Source of the DNA: Centroscyllium fabricii
Lineage: Eukaryota
Length of the DNA: 64,000 nucleotides
Reading direction: 5' to 3'
Assembly: GCA_051313645.2 (NCBI GenBank)
Contig: JBNRSN020000002.1
Span: 354,392,001-354,456,000, forward strand
Shown: piece after piece, positions 5,813 to 63,411 of the stretch
How positions within the stretch are numbered: position 1 is the first letter of the stretch
Layout of the letters: the number at the start of each line of letters is the position of its first letter
Made by a program: the position numbers and the translations under genes
The notes under the pieces: model-generated
Told to the model about the DNA's origin: nothing
The model's database searches: none
Seen by the model: only the letters and a program-made list of their open reading frames with translations

Positions 5813-6295
5813 TTAAAAATGTAAGAAGTCACACAACACCAGGTTCTGCTCGATGATTTTGCGTTGTCGTGTGTCTCGAAGGCCGCCTTGGAGAATGCTT
5901 ACCTGAAGATCGGAGGCTGAATGTCCTTGACTGCTGAAGTGTTCCCCGACTGGGAGGGAACACTCCTGCCTGGTGATTGTTGTGCGATGTCCGTTCATCC
6001 TAACCTCAAACAGACCATCGTTTGCAGCAAATTACCCAGCTTTCAGGAGAACAGCGATCATGACACCACACAACCCTGCCACGGTAACCTCTGCAAGACA
6101 TGCCAGATCGTCAACACAGTTACCATCATCACCCATGAGGACATCACCCACCAGGTGCATGGTATGTACTCATTTGACTCGGCCAACGTTGTCTACCTCA
6201 TACATTGCAGAAAAGGATGCCCCAAAGCATGGTACATTGGCGAGACCATGCAGACACTGTGACAACGGATGAATGGACACCGCACAACAATCGCT
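5813..6295. mobile_element. Penelope-like element fragment (GIY-YIG endonuclease) with internal inversion
   Basis: + strand PCHGNLCKTC...NVVYLIHCRKGCPKAWYIGET...RMNGHRTTI; the continuation MNGHRTTITRQECSLPVGEHF...IIEQ is on the - strand at 5813-5998 and joins the terminal-repeat end. Confidence 0.85.
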
Positions 6296-15514: not shown

Positions 15515-16160
15515 GTCAGCCTTGGTTTAGTGGTCATGATGTGGAGGTGCCGGTGTTGGACTGGGGTGGACAATTGTAAGAAGTCACACAACACCAGGTA
15601 TAGTCCAACAGGAAGGAGCAGCGCTCTGAAAGCTTGTGATTTCAAATAAAACTGTTGGACTATAACCTGGTGTTGTGTGACTTCTTACAATTGGTTTAGT
15701 GGTAGCAGTCTTGCCACTGAGCCAGAAGGTTGTGGGTTCAAGGACCACTCCAGAGACTTGAGTCTGTAGTCTAGGCTGACACTTTAGTGCTGTAGTAAGG
15801 GAGTGCTGCACTGTCTGAGGTGCTGTCTTTTGGTTGAGATGTTAAGCTGAGGGCTCTGTCTGCCCTCTTGGGCAGATGTTAAAAAAAAAAAAAAAAAATC
15901 CTGTGGCTCTATTCGAAGAAGAGCTGGGAAGTTCTCCTGATGCTATTGCCAATATTTATCGTTCGACCAACATCACAAAAACAGACTATATGCTAATTTT
16001 AACTCATGGCTGTTTATCGGATTTTGTTGTGCACAAATTGGCTGCCAACTTTTCCTACAGTTATAAAAGTGACTATATTTCAAATGCTTTATTGGTTGTG
16101 AAGCGCTTTGGGATGTCCTGAGTCACGAAAAGTACTATATAAATGCAAATTCTTTATTGG
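15515..16160 (+). mobile_element. SacSINE1/DeuSINE-like SINE
   Basis: tRNA-like head (GGTTCAAG), Deu-like core GTGCTGCACTGTC...GCACAAATTGGCTGCC, L2-like tail. Confidence 0.8.
15535..15690. mobile_element. 156-bp fold-back Penelope-like mini-element (family 1)
   Basis: 13-bp TSD TTGGTTTAGTGGT (15522-15534, 15691-15703); inverted arms around a 5'-truncated hammerhead GAAGGAGCAGCGCTCTGAAAGCTTGTGA. Confidence 0.8.
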
Positions 16161-19273: not shown

Positions 19274-19541
19274 CATAATGTGGAGGTGCCGGTGTTGGAC
19301 TGGGGTGGACAAATGCAAGAAGTCACACAACACCAGATTTATAGTCCAACGGTTTTATTTTAAATCACAAGCTTTCGGAGCGATGCTCCTTCGTCAGGTG
19401 AACAGAGAGAGAGACTGACAAAGATCACACATCGGGGGAGGGGAGAAATCCGATCTCATACACATCTAACCCTAGAGCACACAAAGGCATATTAGCATAT
19501 TTTAACACCTCAGTCTGCGAACAATGAGGCACAGTTGCAAG
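19274..19541 (-). mobile_element. Penelope-like terminal repeat, solo copy (family 1)
   Basis: TSD GTTTAGAAGA on both sides; same sequence as the arms of 49856-50780. Confidence 0.8.
19365..19401 (-). ncRNA. Minimal type I hammerhead ribozyme motif
   Basis: Minus strand TCAC-CTGACGA-A-GGAGC-ATC-GCTCC-GAAA-GC-TT-GTGA: intact CUGANGA and GAAA cores, 5-bp stem II, palindromic AGCU stem III. Confidence 0.75.
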
Positions 19542-19804
19542 GGTTTAGAAGAATGAGAGGTGATCTCATTGAAATGTCAGATTCTGAGGGTAATTGACAG
19601 GATAGGTGCTGAGTGATTGTTTCCCCGGCTGGAAAGTCTAGATCTAGGGGGCATAGTCTCAGGATAAGGCGTCGGCCATTTAAGTCTGAGATGAGAAGCA
19701 ATTTCTTCACTCAAACGGTTGTGAATCTTTGGAACTCTGCCCCAAAGGGCCGTGGATTCTCAAGTCGTTGAGTATATTTCAAGGCTGAGATAGATAAATG
19801 TTTA

Positions 19805-21911: not shown

Positions 21912-22553
21912 ACTATAGCAAAATACTGCAGATGCTGGAAATCGGAAATAACAGAAAATGCTGGAAAAACTCTGCAGGCCAAGCAACATCCGTGGAGTCG
22001 ACGTTTCGGGTTAGGATCCTTTGTCAAGACTAAAGCCAGGAAATGAAACAGGCAGGAAGGCCGGGGGAGCTGGGAGGGAACAAAAGGGAAGAGAAAACAA
22101 AAGAGAAGAGAGAGCCAAAGAGAAAAGACATTAAGAGTTATTCAAAATGAGAGGAGATGCTGATGGGGCTGTGGACAGGAGACAGCTATAGATTAGGTGT
22201 GAAAAGCACTGGCAGAATGGGAGGTGGCTGCCAAAAGAGAGAGAGAGAGAAAAAAGCCAAATAAAAGGTGTGGATAAAAATAGGTAAATATATAATCGGG
22301 ACCGAAGTTATGATCTGAAATTGTTGAACTCGATATTGAGTCCGGAGGGCTGTAAAGTGCCTAATCGGAAGATGAGGTGTTGTTCTTTGAGTTTACGCTG
22401 AGCTTCCGAGGAACAATGTAGGAGGCCGAGAACAGAGAGATTCATTTCCTTGCTTTGGTCTTGACAAAGGGTCCTAACCTGAAACATCGACTCTATATTT
22501 CTCTCTCCACAGATGTTGCCTGACCTGCTGAGTTTTTCCAGCATTTTCTGTTA
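21912..22553. mobile_element. Fold-back Penelope-like element (family 2) with GIY-YIG C-terminal remnant
   Basis: 14-bp TSD TGTAGGGTATGGGT (21898-21911, 22554-22567); inverted ~90-bp repeats with degenerate hammerheads (21997-22030 -, 22458-22491 +); minus peptide RKLKEQHLIFRLGTLQPSGLN. Confidence 0.85.
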
Positions 22554-30906: not shown

Positions 30907-31025
30907 CCGTCGACCTGAAACGTCAACTCTGCTCCTCTCTCCATCGATGCTGCCGGGCCTGCTGAGTTTCCCCAGCGTTTTCTGCTGTTATTTCAGATTT
31001 CCAGCATCTGCAGTATTTTGCTATC
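30907..31025 (+). mobile_element. Penelope-like family 2 terminal repeat fragment (3' half of hammerhead)
   Basis: GTCGACCTGAAACGTCAACTCTG...CAGCATCTGCAGTATTTTGCTA. Confidence 0.7.
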
Positions 31026-31387
31026 GTTTTACTGTAAGCCTCCTTTTTCTGTTTCATTTTAATGTCTATCTTTAGTTATCCAGGGAGCTCCAGCTTTGGA
31101 TGCCCTTCCTCCCCCCCCCCCCCCCCCCCCCCCCCCCCATGGGAATGTATCCAGTCTGTACCCAAAATATCTCTTCTTTGAAGGCCTCCCAATGCTCATT
31201 TTCTGTTCTATCTGCTAATGTTTGTTTCCAATCCATCAGTTCAGATTATACTAGCGTTTACACTATCGACCTCCTACCAAGATCCGCAAAAGTGAATGAA
31301 TTGGCCCTTTCTTGTCAATTATCAAAGTCATGAACTAACAATTATTTATTAACCATACAATTATAGTTAGCAGCACTTAAACTTTGA

Positions 31388-32485: not shown

Positions 32486-35400
32486 TTTGATCCCTGACAA
32501 GCAAAATGCGGCGACGGGCAAGCAGAAGAAAATCTCATTTGCCCGACCAGACAAGCGATGTGCGGACATGACCCGAGTTGCCGGGTCCGGAAATAGCGCT
32601 GAGGGTGTGCGTGCGCAGCCAGGCGGCGAGCGCCGATGGAGAGGCTACAGGGTGCGACAAAACCACGAGGCCACGGGAACGGGTGGTTGGATCCCGCCCT
32701 GGAGGTGGCTGCGGATGGGCCGGGCCGCGCTTCAGCCAATGGGTTTGGAACTCTGCCCCGCCCGAGCTTGGCCATTCACAGCCCAGCAGTTTTCTCTCGC
32801 TCCTGTGGTTTTGAAGCGCTGCACCCTGCCCGTGCTCGGCCAATCATAGCTCGCTCCGGCTGGCCGCCCCCTCTCCGCTCGGCGCCACAGCAGCTTGATC
32901 CGAGCAGGAAAGAGAGGGCGCTAGTAAAATACTGCAGATGCTGGCAATCAGAAATAACAACAGAAAATGCTGGAGAAACTCAGCAGGCCAAGCAGCATCG
33001 ATGAAGAGAAATATAGAGTTGATAGAAAAATATAGAAGCCCCGCTTCGTTCGTTCCCCCCCCCCCCCCCCCCCCCCCAACCAACACCTCATTAAAAGGGG
33101 AAAACCACAAAGGCTGCAAAAAAGAAAGAACTGAGAAAAAGATGAACAGATGGTGAGTGAAGGGAATAACAACAGAAAACACAGGAGAAACTCAGCAGGC
33201 CAGGCAGCATCGGTGGAGAGAGGAACAGAGTTGACGTTTCAGGTTGATGACCTTTTTTCAAATTTTTCTTATTGGTGAATGAAGGGACTGGGATGAGGTG
33301 ACAGCGAGCTTCCTCTCGGACACTCACACCCAGAGACTCGATACAGGGACACGGCCACCCAGAGACCGAATCCAGGGACCCTGACACCCAGAGACCGAAT
33401 CCAGGGACCCTGACTCCCAGAGACCGAATCCAGGGACATGGCCACCCAGACACCGAATCCAGGGACCCTGACACCCAGAGACCGAATCCAGGGACCCTGA
33501 CACCCAGAGACCGAATCCAGGGACCCTGACACCCAGAGACCGAATCCAGGGACCCAGAGACCGAATCCAGGGACCCTGACACCCAGAGACCGAATCCAGG
33601 GACCCTGACACCCAGAGACCGAATCCAGGGACCCTGACACCCAGAGACCGAATCCAGGGACCCTGACACCCAGAGACCGAATCCGGGGACCCTGACACCC
33701 GGAGACCGAATCCGGGGACCCTGACACCCGGAGACCGAATCCGGGGACCCTGACACCCGGAGACCGAATCCGGGGACCCTGACACCCGGAGACCGAATCC
33801 GGGGACCCTGACACCCGGAGACCGAATCCGGGGACCCTGACACCCGGAGACCGAATCCGGGGACCCTGACACCCGGAGACCGAATCCGGGGACCCTGACA
33901 CCCGGAGACCGAATCCGGGGACCCTGACACCCGGAGACCGAATCCGGGGACCCTGACACCCGGAGACCGAATCCGGGGACACTGCCAACCGGAGACCGAA
34001 TCCGGGGACACTGCCAACCGGAGACCGAATCCGGGGACACTGCCACCCGGAGACCGAATCCGGGGACACTGCCACCCGGAGACCGAATCCGGGGACACTG
34101 CCACCCGGAGACCGAATCCGGGGACACTGCCACCCGGAGACCGAATCCGGGGACACTGCCACCCGGAGACCGAATCCGGGGACACGGCCACCCGGAGACC
34201 GAATCCGGGGACACGGCCACCCGGAGACCGAATCCGGGGACACGGCCACCCGGAGACCGAATCCGGGGACACGGCCACCCGGAGACCGAATCCGGGGACA
34301 CGGCCACCCGGAGACCGAATCCGGGGACACGGCCACCCGGAGACCGAATCCGGGGACACGGCCACCCGGAGACCGAATCCGGGGACACGGCCACCCGGAG
34401 ACCGAATCCGGGGACACGGCCACCCGGAGACCGAATCCGGGGACACGGCCACCCGGAGACCGAATCCGGGGACACGGCCACCCGGAGACCGAATCCGGGG
34501 ACACGGCCACCCGGAGACCGAATCCGGGGACACGGCCACCCGGAGACCGAATCCGGGGACACGGCCACCCGGAGACCGAATCCGGGGACACGGCCACCCG
34601 GAGACCGAATCCGGGGACACGGCCACCCGGAGACCGAATCCGGGGACACGGCCACCCGGAGACCGAATCCGGGGACACGGCCACCCGGAGACCGAATCCG
34701 GGGACACGGCCACCCGGAGACCGAATCCGGGGACACGGCCACCCGGAGACCGAATCCGGGGACACGGCCACCCGGAGACCGAATCCGGGGACACGGCCAC
34801 CCGGAGACCGAATCCGGGGACACGGCCACCCGGAGACCGAATCCGGGGACACGGCCACCCGGAGACCGAATCCGGGGACACGGCCACCCGGAGACCGAAT
34901 CCGGGGACACGGCCACCCGGAGACCGAATGAATCCGGGGACACGGCCACCCAGAGAGAGACCGAATCCGGGGACCCTGGCACCCAGAGAGAGACCGAATC
35001 CAGGGACCCTGGCACCCAGAGAGAGACCGAATCCAGGGACCCTGGCACCCAGAGAGAGACCGAATCCAGGGACCCTGGCACCCAGAGAGAGACCGAATCC
35101 AGGGACCCTGGCACCCAGAGAGAGACCGAATCCAGGGACCCTGGCACCCAGAGAGAGACCGAATCCAGGGACCCTGGCACCCAGAGAGAGACCGAATCCA
35201 GGGACCCTGGCACCCAGAGAGAGACCGAATCCAGGGACCCTGGCACCCAGAGAGAGACCGAATCCAGGGACCCTGGCACCCAGAGAGAGACCGAATCCAG
35301 GGACCCTGGCACCCAGAGAGAGACCGAATCCAGGGACCCTGGCACCCAGAGAGAGACCGAATCCAGGGACCCTGGCACCCAGAGACCGAATCCTGGGGCT

Positions 35401-35749: not shown

Positions 35750-35932
35750 AATCTGAGCGATGTGTGAGGAGAATTTGAACTTTTGCTGTCAGTCACCATG
35801 TAGGTACCAAATCATTGTTCAGGTATCAGCATTACCTAGACATGCTAGGTACCTCGTTTACGCCCTAGCTTCTCTAGTGTCTGCTCACGAAGGGTCTCAC
35901 AGAGGTCCAGATAAGCCAGGACAACTTTATCG

Positions 35933-36127
35933 ATAGCAAAATACTGCGGATGCTGGAAATACGAAATAACAGAAAACGCTGGAGAAACCCAGCAGGCCAG
36001 GCAAAATCGGTGGAGAGAGAAACAGAGTTAACGTTTCAGGTCGACCTGAAATGTTAACTCTGTTTCTCTCCCTACCAATGCTGCCTGGCTTGCTGAGCTA
36101 CTCCAGCGTTTTCTGTTGCTTTTCAGG
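35933..36127. mobile_element. Palindromic Penelope-like family 2 mini-element
   Basis: Inverted arms centred on GTCGAC (36040-36045): AGTTAACGTTTCAGGTCGACCTGAAATGTTAACT. Confidence 0.8.
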
Positions 36128-37508: not shown

Positions 37509-39159
37509 CAGGGCGCGACAAAACCGCTTGCCCGGGGCAAGTAAAATGCGCCGCCGGGCAAGTAAATCAAAATCTTCCTTGCCCGACCGGGCAAGTGATC
37601 GAGGCCATGGGAATGGGTAGGTGGATCCCGCCCTGGAGGCGGGTGCGGATTGGCGAGGGGCCGGGTGCGGATTGGCGAGGGGCCGGGTGCGGATTGGCGA
37701 GGGGCCGGGTGCGGATTGGCGAGGGGCCGGGTGCGGATTGGCGAGGGGCCGGGTGCGGATTGGCGAGGGGCCGGGTGCGGATTGGCGAGGGGCCGGGTGC
37801 GGATTGGCTGATGGGTTTTCAAATCTGCCCCGCCCAAGCTCGGCCAATCACAGCCTGGCAGTTTTCTCACGCTCCGCCCTGCGTCCCGCCCCCTGCCCGT
37901 GCTCGGCCAATCATAGCTCGCTCCGGCCACCCGCCGCAACACCGCAGCGTCTCGCAGCAGTTCGAACCAGCAGTGAAGTGAGGCCAGCGTTTCCCTGGAT
38001 TCGGTCCCTCTTTCACGTCACTGCATCCGCAGCAGAGGGGAACCTTGGCAGGGGGACGGGGGCTGGGCAGCATTGGGGGCAGTGGCTCGGCGAGCCCGGC
38101 AGCATCGGGGGGGGGGGGGGCGGGTGACTCGGCGGTCCCGGCAGCATCGGCGGGGGGGCGACTCGACCGGCCGGGCAGCATCGGCGGGAGAGAGGTGTGG
38201 AGTCGGCGTTGCGGGTTTGGACCCTTTGAGAGGAGCTGGTATTCCTGCTCCAGGCAGCTGGGAGTGTCCGAGCGCTGGGTTCAATCCCTTTGTGAGGTTC
38301 AGGGACACTGACACCCAGAGACCGAATCCAGGGACACTGGCACCCAGAGACCGAATCCAGGGACGCTGAGACCCAGAGACCGAATCCAGGGACGCTGACC
38401 CCCGGAGACCGAATCCAGGGACGCTGACCCCCGGAGACCGAATCCAGGGACGCTGACCCCCAGAGACCGAATCCAGGGACGCTGACCCCCGGAGACCGAA
38501 TCCAGGGACGCTGACCCCCAGAGACCGAATCCAGGGACACTGACCCCCAGAGACCGAATCCAGGGACGCTGACCCCCAGAGACCGAATCCAGGGACAGTC
38601 CAGGGCACGACAAAACCACTCGATGATTGAGGCCACGGGCACAGGTGGGTGGAACCCGCCCTGGAGGCGGGTGCGGAATGGCTGGCGGGGCCGGGTGGCG
38701 CGGCGGGGATTGGAGGAGGCGGCGTGTCAATCGAGACAGGGCAGCAGTCGGGTTAGGTGGAGCGTGCTGGTGGCGCGCGGCAAGCGTGGGTCGGTGCCGT
38801 TGACCCGCTGAGGGCGAGAGAAAAAACCGGAGTGGCTGCTGGATGAAGGTAGGCGGGGAGAGAGAGTGAGGGAGCCCGCAGTCTGCGGAGGCTTTACAAA
38901 GTTTGGTAAATGAGGAAAAAATGTCCAGAGTAGAGAGAGAGAGAGAGAGACCCTGGCAGAGAGGGGTAGAAACTGGGCCAATGCAACTAAAGGCACAATC
39001 ACAATCTCTGGCTTTATATTGAAGCATATTAATAAAAATGTAAAATCTTTATTTAGTTCTTTAAAACTTTAGGGCAAGTGAAATTTGTGTTCGGGAAGTG
39101 TTTTAGAAATCCACTTGCCCGACTGGGCAAATGAAAAACTTTTTTTTTGTAGCACCCTG
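37509..39159 (+). mobile_element. Complete CAGGG hAT-like non-autonomous element with 6-bp TSD
   Basis: CACATC|CAGGGCGCGACAAAA ... TTTTGTAGCACCCTG|CACATC; contains 22-bp (~37640-37808) and 29-bp (~38300-38597) arrays. Confidence 0.9.
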
Positions 39160-47737: not shown

Positions 47738-48810
47738 ATTCAATTCAATTCAAGTTTTATTGTCATTGCAGAGTACTAGTACATTACAACGAGACGAAGA
47801 CTTGACGCTCCCGAGAGTAGTGCAAATAAATTACATGCAAATTGCATACAGTAAAGTACATTTTCAGGTGTGCAGGTACCGGAGTTTATTTTTTAGAGTT
47901 CAGGAGGCTGACAGCCATGGGGAAGAAGCTGTTCTTAAATCTAGTCGTGCGGGTGCGAATTGATCTGTAGCGTCTCCCGGGGCAGGGGGCGAACAGACTG
48001 TGGCTGGGGTGTGTGGGGTCTTTAATAATGTTCAGAGACCTCCGTAGGCAGCGTTTGAGGTAGATGCTTTCAATTGACGGTAGCTGGGTACCGGTGATTC
48101 GTTGGGCAGTTTTGACTACCCGCTGCAGGGCCTTCCGGTCCGAGATGGTGCAATTTCCATACCAGACTGTGATGCAGCTTGTCAGTATGCTTTCGATTGT
48201 GCAGCGGTAGAAGTTGGAGAGGATGCCGGATGACAGCCTGGATTTTTTCAGCTTCCTTAGGAAGTACAGGCGCTGTTGGGCCTTCTTAACCAGAGAGGAG
48301 GTGTTTAGTGACCAGGAGAGATCTTCCGAGATGTGGACCCCGAGGAACTTGAAGCTGGACACCCTTTCCACCTCAGCCCCTTGGATGAAGATGGGGGTGT
48401 GTCTTCTGCTTTCAGTCCTCCGGAAGGCCACTATGATCTCCTTAGTTTTCTTGGTGTTCAGTGCCAGGTTGTTGTCGGCACACCATCCCACAAGGCGCTG
48501 GATCTCATCCCTGTAGGCTGACTCATTGTTGTTGGTGATCTGGCCAACCACCGTGGTGTCGTCCGCAAACTTGATCGTGTTGGAGCCATGGACAGCCGCA
48601 CAGTCGTGAGTGAAGAGGGAGTAGAGGAGGGGGCTCAGCACACAGCCTTGTGGGGCCCCCGTGTTCAGGGTAAGTGGGGGGAGGTGAGGTTGCCTAACTT
48701 CACAGACTGTGGTCTGTTGGTGAGGAAGTCCAGGGTCCAGTTGCAGAGGGAGGTGTTCAGGCCGAGGGTGAGGAGTTTGGTAGACAATTTGCTGGGGACG
48801 ATGGTGTTGT
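47738..48810 (-). mobile_element. Rex1/Babar-type LINE, 5'-truncated
   Basis: NTGAPQGCVLSPLLYSLFTHDC, KFADDTTVVG, KKAQQRLYFLRKL and FYRCTIESILT; (TTGAA)n tail. Confidence 0.9.
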
Positions 48811-49943
48811 ATAGAATTGTACCTGTGAGAAAATGTAAGGGCTGATGGTAGAGGCGTGTAATGAAGTTTCCCTGCGCCATTCATTCCATTAATTAAGTAA
48901 AACATTTCAGGATTGCATTTCCATGTGCTTAATCTGACAGTTGCTGTGTAAAATCTGCCTATCTGATTGAAGCTCAGATTTGTTAACCAGATAGTTGAAA
49001 TCTATACGTTTGATTTTTTAACTGGGGGTGGGGGGTGGGGGAAAGCTACCTGCTTAAACTGAGTAATATATAAATACACATATCTTTGAATGTTTCTGAT
49101 TGCTCGCCTGTTGTGCAACACATGCAAAGTACTTTGTGCTTGTGTAACCTTGAGAAATATTCAGGTCTCCAGAAGCACTGGGGCTGTAACTGAGTTATGC
49201 CAGGAGGATGAATGTACTGGAGGCAGCAAGCTTCTCCGTATAGTTTAACGGCTCATACCAGCTGCTCACTGGTGGGCTTCAGGTTTCTGTACGGAGATGA
49301 GAAAAATATTACGTGGCTCTTGATCTTTTGTTTCCTTGCAAGAAATTGAATTGTGATATTTTTCATTTGATTGATGCAAAGGAAAGCATGTTCTTTCAAT
49401 TCTATATTTTGCAGATAAATCATTTGAACAGAATCTATTGTAGTAAACGAGAGGTGGGGAGTGACAAGTCTTGCTCAATCTTGATCGTGCACTGACCAGA
49501 TGAAAAAATATTGCACATTCTGTATTTATGATTCATATTTACGATTCATTTTAGATTGTTAACTGCTGCTGATGTATTGTTTGAGCAGTACATACATACT
49601 TGAAAATTTAATTTGACAATGTTTCTTCATTCACTGTGCTTCAATCTGTGATTGCAGTTATCACTAATGGTGCTGAACACTTATTACTTGAGATAGTAGT
49701 AATGGAAAGCTGCCAGGGATTTTTCCATTTATTATTGATTCCACGAGGTATCTTGCCTTGTGCCCACTGGCATTTCCTCACCTCATATTTAGGTCTGTTG
49801 CAGACTAAATGATGGAGATTGATTGCCATGAATAGTAAATAACTCCATTGTTGTATGATGTGGAGGTGCTGGTGTTGGACTGGGGTGGACAAATGCAAGA
49901 AGTCACACAACACCAGGTTATAGTCCAACAGTTTTATTTTAAA

Positions 49944-49981
49944 TCTCAAGCTTTCGGAGCGTCTGCCCCTTCGTCAGGTGA
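49944..49981 (-). ncRNA. Minimal hammerhead motif with a stem I mismatch
   Basis: Minus strand TCACCTGACGAAGGGGCAGACGCTCCGAAAGCTTGAGA. Confidence 0.6.
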
Positions 49982-50685
49982 AAGAGAAGCTGACTTAAAG
50001 AACGCACATATGGGAGGAAGAGAGAAATCTGATCTCTCCCACATCTCACCTTAACAGAGATAGACAGAGCACACAAAGGCGTATTAACATATTTTAGCAT
50101 ATCCGTCTGAGATCAATGAGGCACAGTCACAAGGGGTCAAATGCTGCAAAACACACAGAATGATTAAAAAAAAAGGAATTTCCTTACAAGACAAAGATGT
50201 CTCTGGTCTGGATGACTACGTCAGGCAGGGTCACTGGCAGGAGTGTTCCCTCCCGGTCGGGGAACATTTCAGCAGTGAAGAACATTCAGCCTCCGATCTT
50301 CGGGTAAGCATTCTCCAAGGCGGCCTTCGAGACACATGACAACGCAAAATCGTCGAGCAGAGGCTGATAGCCAAATTCCGCACCCATGAGGACGGTCTCA
50401 ACCGTGATATTGGCTTCATGTCACGCTACATGTGACCCTGCCTGACGTAGAGTCATCCAGACCAAAGACACCTTTGTCTTGTAAGGAAATTCCTTTAAAA
50501 AAAAAAAAATCATTGTGTTTTGCAGCATTTGACCCCTTGTGACTGTGCCTCATTGATCTCAGACTGATATGTTAAAATATGTTAATACGCCTTTGTGTGC
50601 TCTGTCTATCTCTGTTAAGGTGAGATGTGGGAGATCAGATTTCTCTCTTCCTCCCATATGTGCGTTCTTTAAGTCAGCTTCTCTT

Positions 50686-50723
50686 TCACCTGACGAAGGG
50701 GCAGACGCTCCGAAAGCTTGTGA
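50686..50723 (+). ncRNA. Minimal type I hammerhead ribozyme motif
   Basis: TCAC-CTGACGA-A-GGGGC-AGAC-GCTCC-GAAA-GC-TT-GTGA. Confidence 0.75.
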
Positions 50724-50864
50724 TTTAAAATAAAACTGTTGGACTATAACCTGGTGTTGTGTGACTTCTTGCATTTGTCCATTATTGTACTATGCGACTT
50801 CCAGGATGGTAGAAGGTGAACTAGGTCTAGTTTCATCTTGCAAGGCCTATGCAGGAGGACTTGG

Positions 50865-61864: not shown

Positions 61865-62728
61865 CATGGCGTGAACAAAAAACCACTTGCCTGGGACAAG
61901 CAAAATGCGCTGACTGGCAAGTAAAACAAAATCAGACTTGCCCGACCCGGGCAAGTGCGGTGGATCCCGCCCTGGAGGCGGGTGAGGTTTGGCCGGGGGG
62001 CAGGCGCGTGGCGGGGATTGGAGGAGGCGGCGTGTCAATCGGGACGGGGCAGCAATCCAGTTAGGTGGAGCGGGCTGGTGGTAACAACAGAAAGTGCTGA
62101 GGGGGGGTGGGGGGCTCGGCGGGCTGGGCAGCATCGAGGGTGGGGGGGCTCGACGGGCCGGGCAGCATCGGGGGGGGGGGGGGGGTGTTGCTCAGCGGGT
62201 CGCGCGCCGTGGGGGGGAAGGGAGGGTGCTCGGCAGACCAGGCTCCATGGGATATGGGGGGGGGGGGGGGCTCCGTGGGCCGGGCAGCATCGGGGGAGAG
62301 AGGTGTGAAGTCGACGTCTCGGGTTGGGACCCTTTGAGAGGCGCTGCGATTCCTGCTCCTCCAGGCAGCTGGGAGTGTCCGAGCGCCGAGTTCAATCCCT
62401 TTGTGAGGTTCGGGGACACTGACCACCCAGAGACTGAATCCAGGGACACTGACACCCAGACACCGAATCCAGGGATACTGACTCCCCGAGACCGAATCCA
62501 GGGACACTGACTGACTCGCAGAGACCGAATCCAGGGATGCTGACACAGAGAGACCGAATCCAGGGACAGTCCAGGGCACGACAAAACCACTTGCCCGCTC
62601 GAGGCCACGGGCACGGGTGGGTGGATCCCACCCTGGAGGTGGGTGCGAATGGCTGGCGGGGCCGGCGGCGTGGCGGTGATTGGAGGAGGCAGCGTGTCCA
62701 TCGGGATGGGACAGCAGTTGGGTTAGGT
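61865..62728 (+). mobile_element. CAGGG hAT-like element, left part, with a short 29-bp array
   Basis: Colinear with 37509-38760; about 6 units at 62410-62570. Confidence 0.8.
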
Positions 62729-63411
62729 CAGTGGTCCCCAACCTTTTTGGCTCCGCGGCCCATTTTGAGGTTCGCAATTTTTTCGTGGGGGGGTGCTGGC
62801 GGGGGGTCGTGTTCGGGCGGTCAGGCAGCATGACGGGGCGTGGTGCTGTTCCAGCTCCAGCCTACTGAAATACAATCTCTTCACTCTCATTGAAGAGGTT
62901 CGGGTTCCAATAAGCAGCATGACCCTTCTCTCAAAATGCTTTTTACCAGTATTTGGCACAAAGGAAAAACTAAAGTTTAGTGTTTCCTTTGTGCCAAACG
63001 CTGGCAAAAAGCATTTTGAGAGAAGGGTCATGCCGCCCACCGGAACCCGAACCTCCCCAATGAGAGCGAAGAGACTGCACCCCAGCAGGCTGGAGCTGGA
63101 ACAGCACCGTGCCCCGTCATGCCGCCTGACCGCCCGAACCCGACCACCCCCGTCAGCCCCCCTCCTCACCGCCCACGTCACGACGTAAGCGGTGAAAAAA
63201 AGGCGCTCGAGGCGCAGACGCAAGCCTTACGTCTGTGCCTCAAATGCCCTCTCACCGCTTACGTCGTGACGTCACGACGTAAGCGGTGAAAAAAAAAGGC
63301 GTTCGAGGCACAGACGCAAGCCCTACGTCTGTGCCTCGTTAAACGGCTTCCGTCTGTGCATCATTAAATGAGGCACAGACGGAAACAAGCGGTCCAGCCA
63401 AAATACAGCGT
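62729..63411. mobile_element. hAT/Charlie-like MITE left part with a long internal palindrome
   Basis: CAGTGGTCCCCAACCTTTTT terminus; 170-bp inverted arms at 62805-63145. Confidence 0.7.

Follow-up and report, generated by a model that had tools for sequence, protein, structure and literature searches.

Two inverted copies of one sequence lie head to head at position 49856 of the window (the whole 64-kb stretch of DNA that was analyzed), and each copy carries a hammerhead ribozyme motif. Is this fold-back a small ribozyme-bearing element that is mobilized as a unit, or is it an ordinary insertion of a Penelope-like element (PLE)? We conclude that it is an ordinary insertion: two truncated PLE copies lie head to head, and this arrangement is already well described. 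More specifically, we propose, with a probability of about 0.88, that a shark PLE of the Neptune type inserted here as a one-off event and was dead on arrival, with two truncated cDNAs joined in the inverted structure that is typical of the family. The insertion is most likely dead. The locus is a single example of a common type of insertion product, and its small value is mechanistic. (Papers are cited below for the passages that bear on each point, and negative statements about a paper apply to those passages.)

Anatomy of the fold-back and identity of its family

The features of the insertion, other than the ribozyme motifs, are:

49844-49855 (+): left copy of the target-site duplication (TSD), 12 bp, with a boundary that is uncertain by 1-2 nt; 11 of 12 positions match 50778-50789
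49856-49889 (-): PLE tail, a 3' extension of ~34 bp that is also found at 15535 and 19274 and is absent at the ends at 50777, 15690, and 5817
49886-50234 (-): left arm, a 5'-truncated copy of the 3' repeat (pLTR); 331 of 352 alignment columns match 50432-50781
50235 (no strand): inversion junction, a base that matches neither continuation; the 31-mer around it is unique in the window
50235-50435 (+): ORF-remnant spacer; 57 of 65 amino acids match residues 579-643 of P0008 (alignment and tblastn)
50432-50781 (+): right arm, the 3' repeat (pLTR) of a longer 5'-truncated copy, with its tail-less end at 50777
50729-50734 (+): AATAAA, 10 nt downstream of a predicted cleavage site and followed by a GU-rich stretch (a consensus match only)
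50778-50789 (+): right copy of the TSD, 11 of 12 positions matching the left copy

Both the near-perfect inverted arms of ~350 bp and the TSD that had been reported in a preliminary description of this DNA were recovered. Besides the 331 matches, the alignment of the arms has 16 mismatches and 5 gap columns (blastn of arm against arm: 94.0%, E = 6e-153). Eleven of the mismatches are within a T/A tract (50498-50513), and the other five are scattered substitutions. One arm has a T-tract where the other has an A-tract (50497-50513 vs. 50156-50171), which looks like a micro-inversion with slippage, or else a homopolymer sequencing error. The score of the TSD was equalled by 3 of 2,000 random position pairs if tandem arrays were excluded, and in 13 of 300 trials of a wider search that kept the arrays. 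The final 4 nt of the right-arm match (50778-50781) double as the first 4 nt of the TSD. The tail, which the preliminary description lacked, is on the left arm only and has no counterpart on the right arm.

The junction at 50234/50235 is not palindromic. From the sequence, base 50235 could be a single extra or changed base, or part of an imperfect 4-nt microhomology. If we searched the 64-kb window for the junction 31-mer and allowed up to 7 mismatches, the only occurrence was the junction itself. The 5' end of the left arm (50234, which corresponds to 50432 in the right arm) is one base before the stop codon of the ORF, at the boundary between the ORF and the 3' repeat. This could be chance, or it could be a preferred stop.

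The arms are separated by a spacer of 197 bp (50235-50431), which is in frame with the beginning of the right arm. The translation of 50238-50432 is the last 65 amino acids of an ORF with reverse transcriptase (RT) and GIY-YIG endonuclease parts, with one in-frame TGA at 50337-50339. This peptide is 88% identical to the C-terminus of P0008, a protein from Heptranchias that has an RVT_1 domain, a DKG motif, a Cx4CxxC linker, and a CCHH endonuclease motif. A protein that matches the spacer carries a precomputed assignment to PF01541 (GIY-YIG). The spacer had been described as a GIY-YIG remnant of ~200 bp, and it is indeed the C-terminal part of the endonuclease, but the GIY and YIG motifs themselves are outside it. 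Pfam found no families in any of the three ORF remnants that we searched.

More of the ORF is preserved in a related copy at 5817-6295. A search with its translation gave 48 proteins out of 50 candidates, and the named ones are from sharks. The genera with homologs are Heptranchias, Scyliorhinus, Mustelus, and Chiloscyllium. Judging from these homologs, the host is very likely an elasmobranch. A Cx4CxxC linker, as well as two cysteines between GIY- and YIG-like motifs, are present both in this copy (6002-6295) and in P0008. A single ORF with an RT plus a GIY-YIG endonuclease at its C-terminus is thus shown for the family, of which the copy at 49856 retains just the last 65 codons. Using the PLE clade definitions of PMC8557442, we assign the family by motif to the endonuclease-containing (EN+) PLEs of the Neptune type. 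The Cx4CxxC linker also occurs in Nematis; among vertebrates, only Neptune and Poseidon elements are reported (bioRxiv 10.64898/2026.07.22.740005). The earlier identification of the locus as Penelope-like is borne out by the RT-bearing shark homologs of the spacer and of the copy at 5817.

The layout is also familiar from PLEs. An inverted 5'-truncated copy beside the 5' end, with a tail of 30-40 bp at one end, is the typical arrangement (PMC8557442), and the same layout is given in a curation guide (PMC8969392). The one-sided tail of 30-40 bp is also described in PMC11167929, and PMC3846280 describes inverted pLTRs that have TSDs of 9-10 bp and a tail of 31 bp. The origin of the inverted repeats of PLEs is described as undefined (PMC8557442). 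Neptune elements (PMC8557442) share with 49856 and its family an ORF with a C-terminal GIY-YIG domain, the DKG, Cx4CxxC, and CCHH motifs, 5' truncation, an adjacent inverted copy, a one-sided tail, and variable TSDs; the copy at 49856 differs in retaining just 65 codons of the ORF. Pen2a_Av and Pen2_Av from Adineta vaga likewise have head-to-head pLTRs, a 31-bp tail on one of them, and TSDs of 9-10 bp; they differ in having longer ORF bodies and palindromic junctions, whereas 49856 has arms of ~350 bp and a non-palindromic junction (PMC3846280).

We also note a few features of the 3' repeat. The AATAAA at 50729-50734 is possibly a polyadenylation signal. It and the GU-rich stretch (50729-50770) have the predicted cleavage site on one side and the two fixed outer ends on the other. 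Should this poly(A) signal be functional, these insertions could be templated by read-through RNA only. In this family, each of the three tails ends at an ATG or just before one. We rejected an intron within the pLTR as a weak candidate: a donor-like site at 50620 and acceptors at 50673 or 50677 would span only 54-58 nt.

Related copies and how the insertion formed

The window contains four loci of this family (49856, 19274, 15535, and 5817). Besides 49856, these are:

19274-19542 (-): a lone 5'-truncated arm with the tail, an intact hammerhead core, and a 10-bp TSD, without an inverted partner
15535-15690 (no strand): a small fold-back of 77 + 79 bp with the tail on the left arm, a 13-bp TSD, and another junction
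5817-6295 (no strand): a rearranged copy with a tail-less end, whose ORF pieces, among them the Cx4CxxC linker and the GIY-YIG core, run in both orientations

The right arm of 15535 begins inside the hammerhead and lacks the CUGAnGA box. At 5817-6295, the sequence skips from a tail-less end of 29 bp to part of the ORF on the same strand and then to an inverted piece from further upstream in the ORF. We did not find a TSD at 5817-6295; at the other three loci, the TSDs are 12 bp (49856), 13 bp (15535), and 10 bp (19274).

The outer ends of these copies are fixed and the inner ends are not. The outer ends of the tails agree within 1-2 nt (3 of 3), and the tail-less outer ends agree within 3 nt (3 of 3). 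The six 5' (inner) ends, in right-arm coordinates, are at 50235, 50432, 50534, 50695, 50736, and 50748. Junctions that differ from copy to copy had been named beforehand as the mark of ordinary one-off inversions during insertion, and within the window the junctions do differ at all four loci of the family.

The two arms at 49856 probably had the same source. In a comparison with the copy at 19274, the two arms agree with each other against it at 31 positions, three changes are found in the left arm only, and none are found in the right arm only (across 230 ungapped columns). This points to a single donor for both arms, although gene conversion would look alike.

We think that the locus was probably, if far from certainly, formed by two primings. 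This view comes from the anatomy of the locus and from published in vitro work. The element's endonuclease would make a staggered cut of 12 bp. The 3' end of the top strand would then prime cDNA synthesis on the element's RNA, at the downstream of its two start sites (the tail site), and synthesis would halt after ~380 nt. The 3' end of the bottom strand would prime at the upstream, tail-less site, with 4 nt of complementarity between target and template, and this cDNA would extend into the ORF and halt after ~545 nt. Both cDNAs, truncated as they are, would be joined head to head and then repaired. Because the arms are head to head with their 3' ends outward, the left cDNA corresponds to the top strand and the right cDNA to the bottom strand. 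The hammerheads would be passengers of the insertion: they are 60-130 nt from the cDNA start sites, so any arm that is longer than this distance carries one.

The in vitro work was done with PAc, a Poseidon element from Anolis. In that system, both target strands are cut and extended, and reverse transcription starts at two sites that bound the tail (PMC11167929). Cleavage by the hammerhead is not required in vitro, and the Anolis ribozyme is assisted by protein (PMC11167929). PAc resembles 49856 in having a tail between two fixed ends downstream of the hammerhead; it differs in belonging to another clade and in having an ORF that starts inside the hammerhead, and no target-template homology is reported for it (PMC11167929). 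A point against our explanation is that Frangieh et al. describe RT initiation sites without homology to the cut DNA (PMC11167929), whereas at 49856, the TSD's first 4 nt match the next 4 nt of the template at the tail-less end, and 3 nt match at 15691, so there is target-template complementarity of 3-4 nt at both of the tail-less ends that have a TSD.

A simple snap-back of one cDNA would not give this structure, because the tail is on the left only and the spacer is contiguous with the right arm only, so neither arm contains the other. A more elaborate form of self-priming is possible but rather unlikely. One cDNA or antisense template would prime itself and give a perfect palindrome, the tail would arise by endonuclease resolution, and the spacer would arise by a later, asymmetric central deletion. 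Self-priming has been put forward for palindromic PLE junctions (PMC3846280), and the tail has been ascribed to EN-mediated resolution (PMC8557442). The common donor of the two arms is consistent with this, as is the spacer-less palindrome in stem II at 35933, which belongs to another PLE family (see below). Long palindromes can undergo central deletion. However, at 49856, two extra events would be needed (loss of the tail from one arm and a deletion of 197 bp from the other), and there is no palindrome at the junction. Also, the tail-less ends are at one fixed site, as predicted by the finding of two start sites. Genome-wide counts of insertions with a tail on one arm, extra sequence on the other arm, and 3-4 nt of complementarity would discriminate two-strand priming from self-priming.

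The hammerhead motifs and whether they matter

We searched both strands of the 64-kb window with our own descriptor for hammerheads and compared the results to 100 dinucleotide shuffles. This identified three hammerheads (C3 at 50690 on the + strand, and at 49977 and 19397 on the - strand), while the shuffled sequences had an average of 0.01. We count all three cores in the window as intact or near-intact. The two at the fold-back are:

49944-49981 (-): minimal type I hammerhead, left copy, with C3 at 49977 and predicted cleavage after U17 at 49948
50686-50723 (+): minimal type I hammerhead, right copy, with all elements of the descriptor intact and U17 at 50719

A scan of the whole window with Rfam (E ≤ 5) gave 15 matches, none of which are hammerheads, probably due to the loop-less stem III.

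The right-arm hammerhead has a stem I of 4 bp, a stem II of 5 bp, and the palindromic AGCU. An extra A follows A9, ahead of G10.1, and one of the pairs in stem II is G.U. In the left-arm hammerhead, the second pair of stem I is replaced by an A.A mismatch. This mismatch is derived, as the right arm and the copy at 19274 agree on the pairing base. So the features of minimal PLE hammerheads (CUGAnGA, GAAA, the UH site, the stems, the extra nucleotide, and the 15.2-16.2 palindrome) are complete on the right and are complete but for one mismatch on the left. The claim that there are paired minimal hammerheads stands in that each arm has a core, with the reservation that stem I is mismatched on the left. 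That claim's other part, that these are PLE-type minimal type I hammerheads of the kind thought to act as dimers, agrees with the description in PMC4209133. As in that description, 49856 has the extra nucleotide after A9, the G10.1-C11.1 pair, the 15.2-16.2 palindrome, a 4-bp stem I, and a loop-less stem III; it differs in that stem II is 5 bp instead of the 7-8 bp in Schistosoma and in that the cores are 713 bp apart (from C3 to C3) instead of 100-700 bp (PMC4209133). Cervera and De la Peña (2014) reported such pairs of minimal hammerheads on opposite strands and traced dispersed motifs to truncated PLEs, with no mention of shark families (PMC4209133). Single minimal hammerheads did not cleave, and dimers cleaved weakly (PMC4209133).

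What would happen to these motifs in RNA? The preliminary description was correct that a transcript of either strand has one sense ribozyme and its antisense, as the two cores are on opposite strands. It also held that cleavage competes with formation of the hairpin, and our predictions argue against this. Because the arms are head to head, the antisense arm is made first in read-through RNA from either flank. By the time the growing + strand RNA reaches position 50700, 253 nucleotides of the right arm are already paired with the left arm. Of the hammerhead's 38 nucleotides, 37 are base-paired to the left arm in the read-through RNA, and the probability of both stem I and stem II is 0.0. With nearest-neighbor energies, which leave out tertiary contacts and proteins, the full-length folds of the two strands are at -684 and -689 kcal/mol, and the sense/antisense duplex of the 43-nt motif is at -81.7 kcal/mol. 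The double-hammerhead form is predicted to be at -21.5 kcal/mol for the right motif, vs. a cofold minimum of -25.8 kcal/mol, and at -11.1 kcal/mol for the left motif, vs. a cofold minimum of -21.7 kcal/mol. In this model, the ribozymes should be buried in a duplex of ~350 bp in read-through RNA, and we would not expect cleavage. We infer that the locus is immobile and that it does not cleave in vivo. The in-frame stop codon in the spacer and the derived mismatch in stem I would fit with decay.

The insertion might be inert itself and have some effect through its RNA: a read-through hairpin of ~350 bp could be diced or edited and help to silence its own family. The predicted hairpin (-684 kcal/mol) speaks for this, and antisense small RNAs from PLE copies are described in a rotifer and in Drosophila (PMC3846280). 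We doubt this explanation, as no host gene was identified around 49856 (in a list of ORFs only).

The preliminary description suggested that 49856, together with 15535, 19274, 21912, and 35933, is part of a population of small, non-coding, ribozyme-bearing elements that resemble retrozymes. Such a fold-back would be re-mobilized by PLE proteins, and its cleavage would be regulated by competition with the hairpin. The right hammerhead core is intact, and pLTR sequences alone suffice for mobilization in trans in a rotifer (PMC3846280). Retrozymes stem from the pLTRs of PLEs and occur in a chondrichthyan (bioRxiv 10.64898/2026.07.22.740005). Nevertheless, we consider this very improbable for 49856, and the population as described is not supported. 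Of the four companions, 19274 has an intact core and the other three do not. Also, 19274 consists of one arm only, the CUGAnGA box is missing from 15535 (see above), and 21912 and 35933 are from another family.

The organization of the locus is also unlike that of retrozymes. Non-LTR retrozymes are defined by tandem hammerheads on the same strand (PMC7229834; bioRxiv 10.64898/2026.07.22.740005). At 49856, there are no head-to-tail units with same-strand hammerheads; each strand has one core, and there is no overlapping tandem array. As each strand has a single sense ribozyme, neither a monomer nor a circle would be released. 49856 does share with non-LTR retrozymes that it is derived from a pLTR, is short, bears hammerheads, and is in an animal, but retrozymes are head-to-tail units with a same-strand ribozyme in each and a circular RNA, whereas 49856 has two head-to-head arms and an ORF remnant (PMC7229834; bioRxiv 10.64898/2026.07.22.740005). 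Retrozymes have a canonical type I hammerhead with loop-loop contacts and no ORF remnant (PMC7229834); at 49856, the motif is of the minimal PLE form, and 65 codons of coding sequence are still present. A retrozyme unit would also recur with fixed boundaries at many loci, but the junctions are unique at all four loci of the family in the window, and the antisense arm, being made first, leaves stems I and II with a probability of 0.0. Minimal hammerheads are inactive as monomers and have low activity as dimers (PMC4209133), and 8 of 9 predicted dimers from Xenopus failed to cleave (bioRxiv 10.64898/2026.07.22.740005). Finally, the locus has no sequence downstream of the tail, the position of the protein-binding region in the Anolis element (PMC11167929).

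A similar proposal, which we consider just as improbable, is that this exact fold-back unit is re-mobilized as a whole by Neptune proteins and has given rise to a family of non-autonomous elements with head-to-head arms and hammerheads, and that outward transcription from internal promoters frees the ribozymes to act as dimers in trans. Transcripts from internal starts do escape the hairpin, but the probability of stem II is then only 0.0-0.24 (for the three starts tested), and a dimer would still require a second RNA. We compared the 57-amino-acid frame that spans the junction to annotated proteins, which is a weak test, and none of the 14 matches (13 + 1) cross the junction. (Thirteen of them cover 56-58% of the frame, on the ORF side; the other covers 75%, and its extra part is ordinary ORF sequence.) In the open-licence PMC and bioRxiv literature, we found no report of a re-mobilized fold-back PLE family or of this shark family.

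The idea that the locus is a DNA-transposon derivative (a MITE or fold-back with terminal inverted repeats) or an assembly artifact is almost certainly wrong: it has long terminal inverted repeats and a TSD, and inverted repeats can upset assemblies (PMC8557442), but the ends are asymmetric (the tail), TSD lengths vary from 7 to 14 bp, the content is homologous to the 3' end of a PLE, and the arms differ at scattered sites within a common flanking TSD.

We return to our preferred reading, an ordinary insertion of two truncated cDNAs. For surveys of hammerheads, it implies that opposite-strand pairs within head-to-head arms are a mark of truncated PLE insertions, and that retrozyme counts should leave them out.

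A second PLE family and other features of the window

The window also contains a second family of shark PLEs (21912-22553, 35931-36127, 30909-31027, 32919-33023, and 33164-33261) with the same layout of a tail plus an inversion, and the end of its ORF can be read in the sequence. The loci at 21912 and 35933 had been grouped with 49856, but there is no blastn match between the two families, so we rejected them as members. Their TSDs are 14 and 7 bp, and the range of TSD lengths given above (7-14 bp) is across five loci of the two families. In the descriptor scan, no copy of the second family had an intact hammerhead core.

The 5' ends of the second family's copies may cluster at the hammerhead. 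At 35933, both arms end at the same base in stem II, which gives the spacer-less palindrome. The copy at 30909 starts in loop II, and the copy at 32919 starts ~2 nt before the predicted cleavage site.

Three fragments of the second family (33164-33261, 38161-38228, and 62283-62336) adjoin one 29-bp tandem array (at 33327, 38300, and 62413), so the copies at 33164, 38161, and 62283 are probably not independent. This suggests that the fragments and the array form a larger composite repeat, which is possibly a non-autonomous derivative of a PLE.

Across both families, seven copies have a tail, and six of them (15535, 19274, 21912, 32919, 35933, and 49856) carry it on a minus-strand arm; the exception is 31027. 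This could be chance, or it could be an orientation bias within a transcription unit.

Rfam gave a weak match to drz-agam-2-2, an HDV-like ribozyme, at 48907-49072 on the minus strand (17.6 bits vs. a gathering threshold of 38; E = 2.9). It is near the 5' side of an open frame of 371 codons (47886-49001, minus strand), and it is probably a chance match. Another feature, at 62788-63162, is a near-perfect palindrome of 187 bp (84%, with a 1-nt spacer) that is unrelated to the PLE families and that gives a spurious match to a miRNA family.
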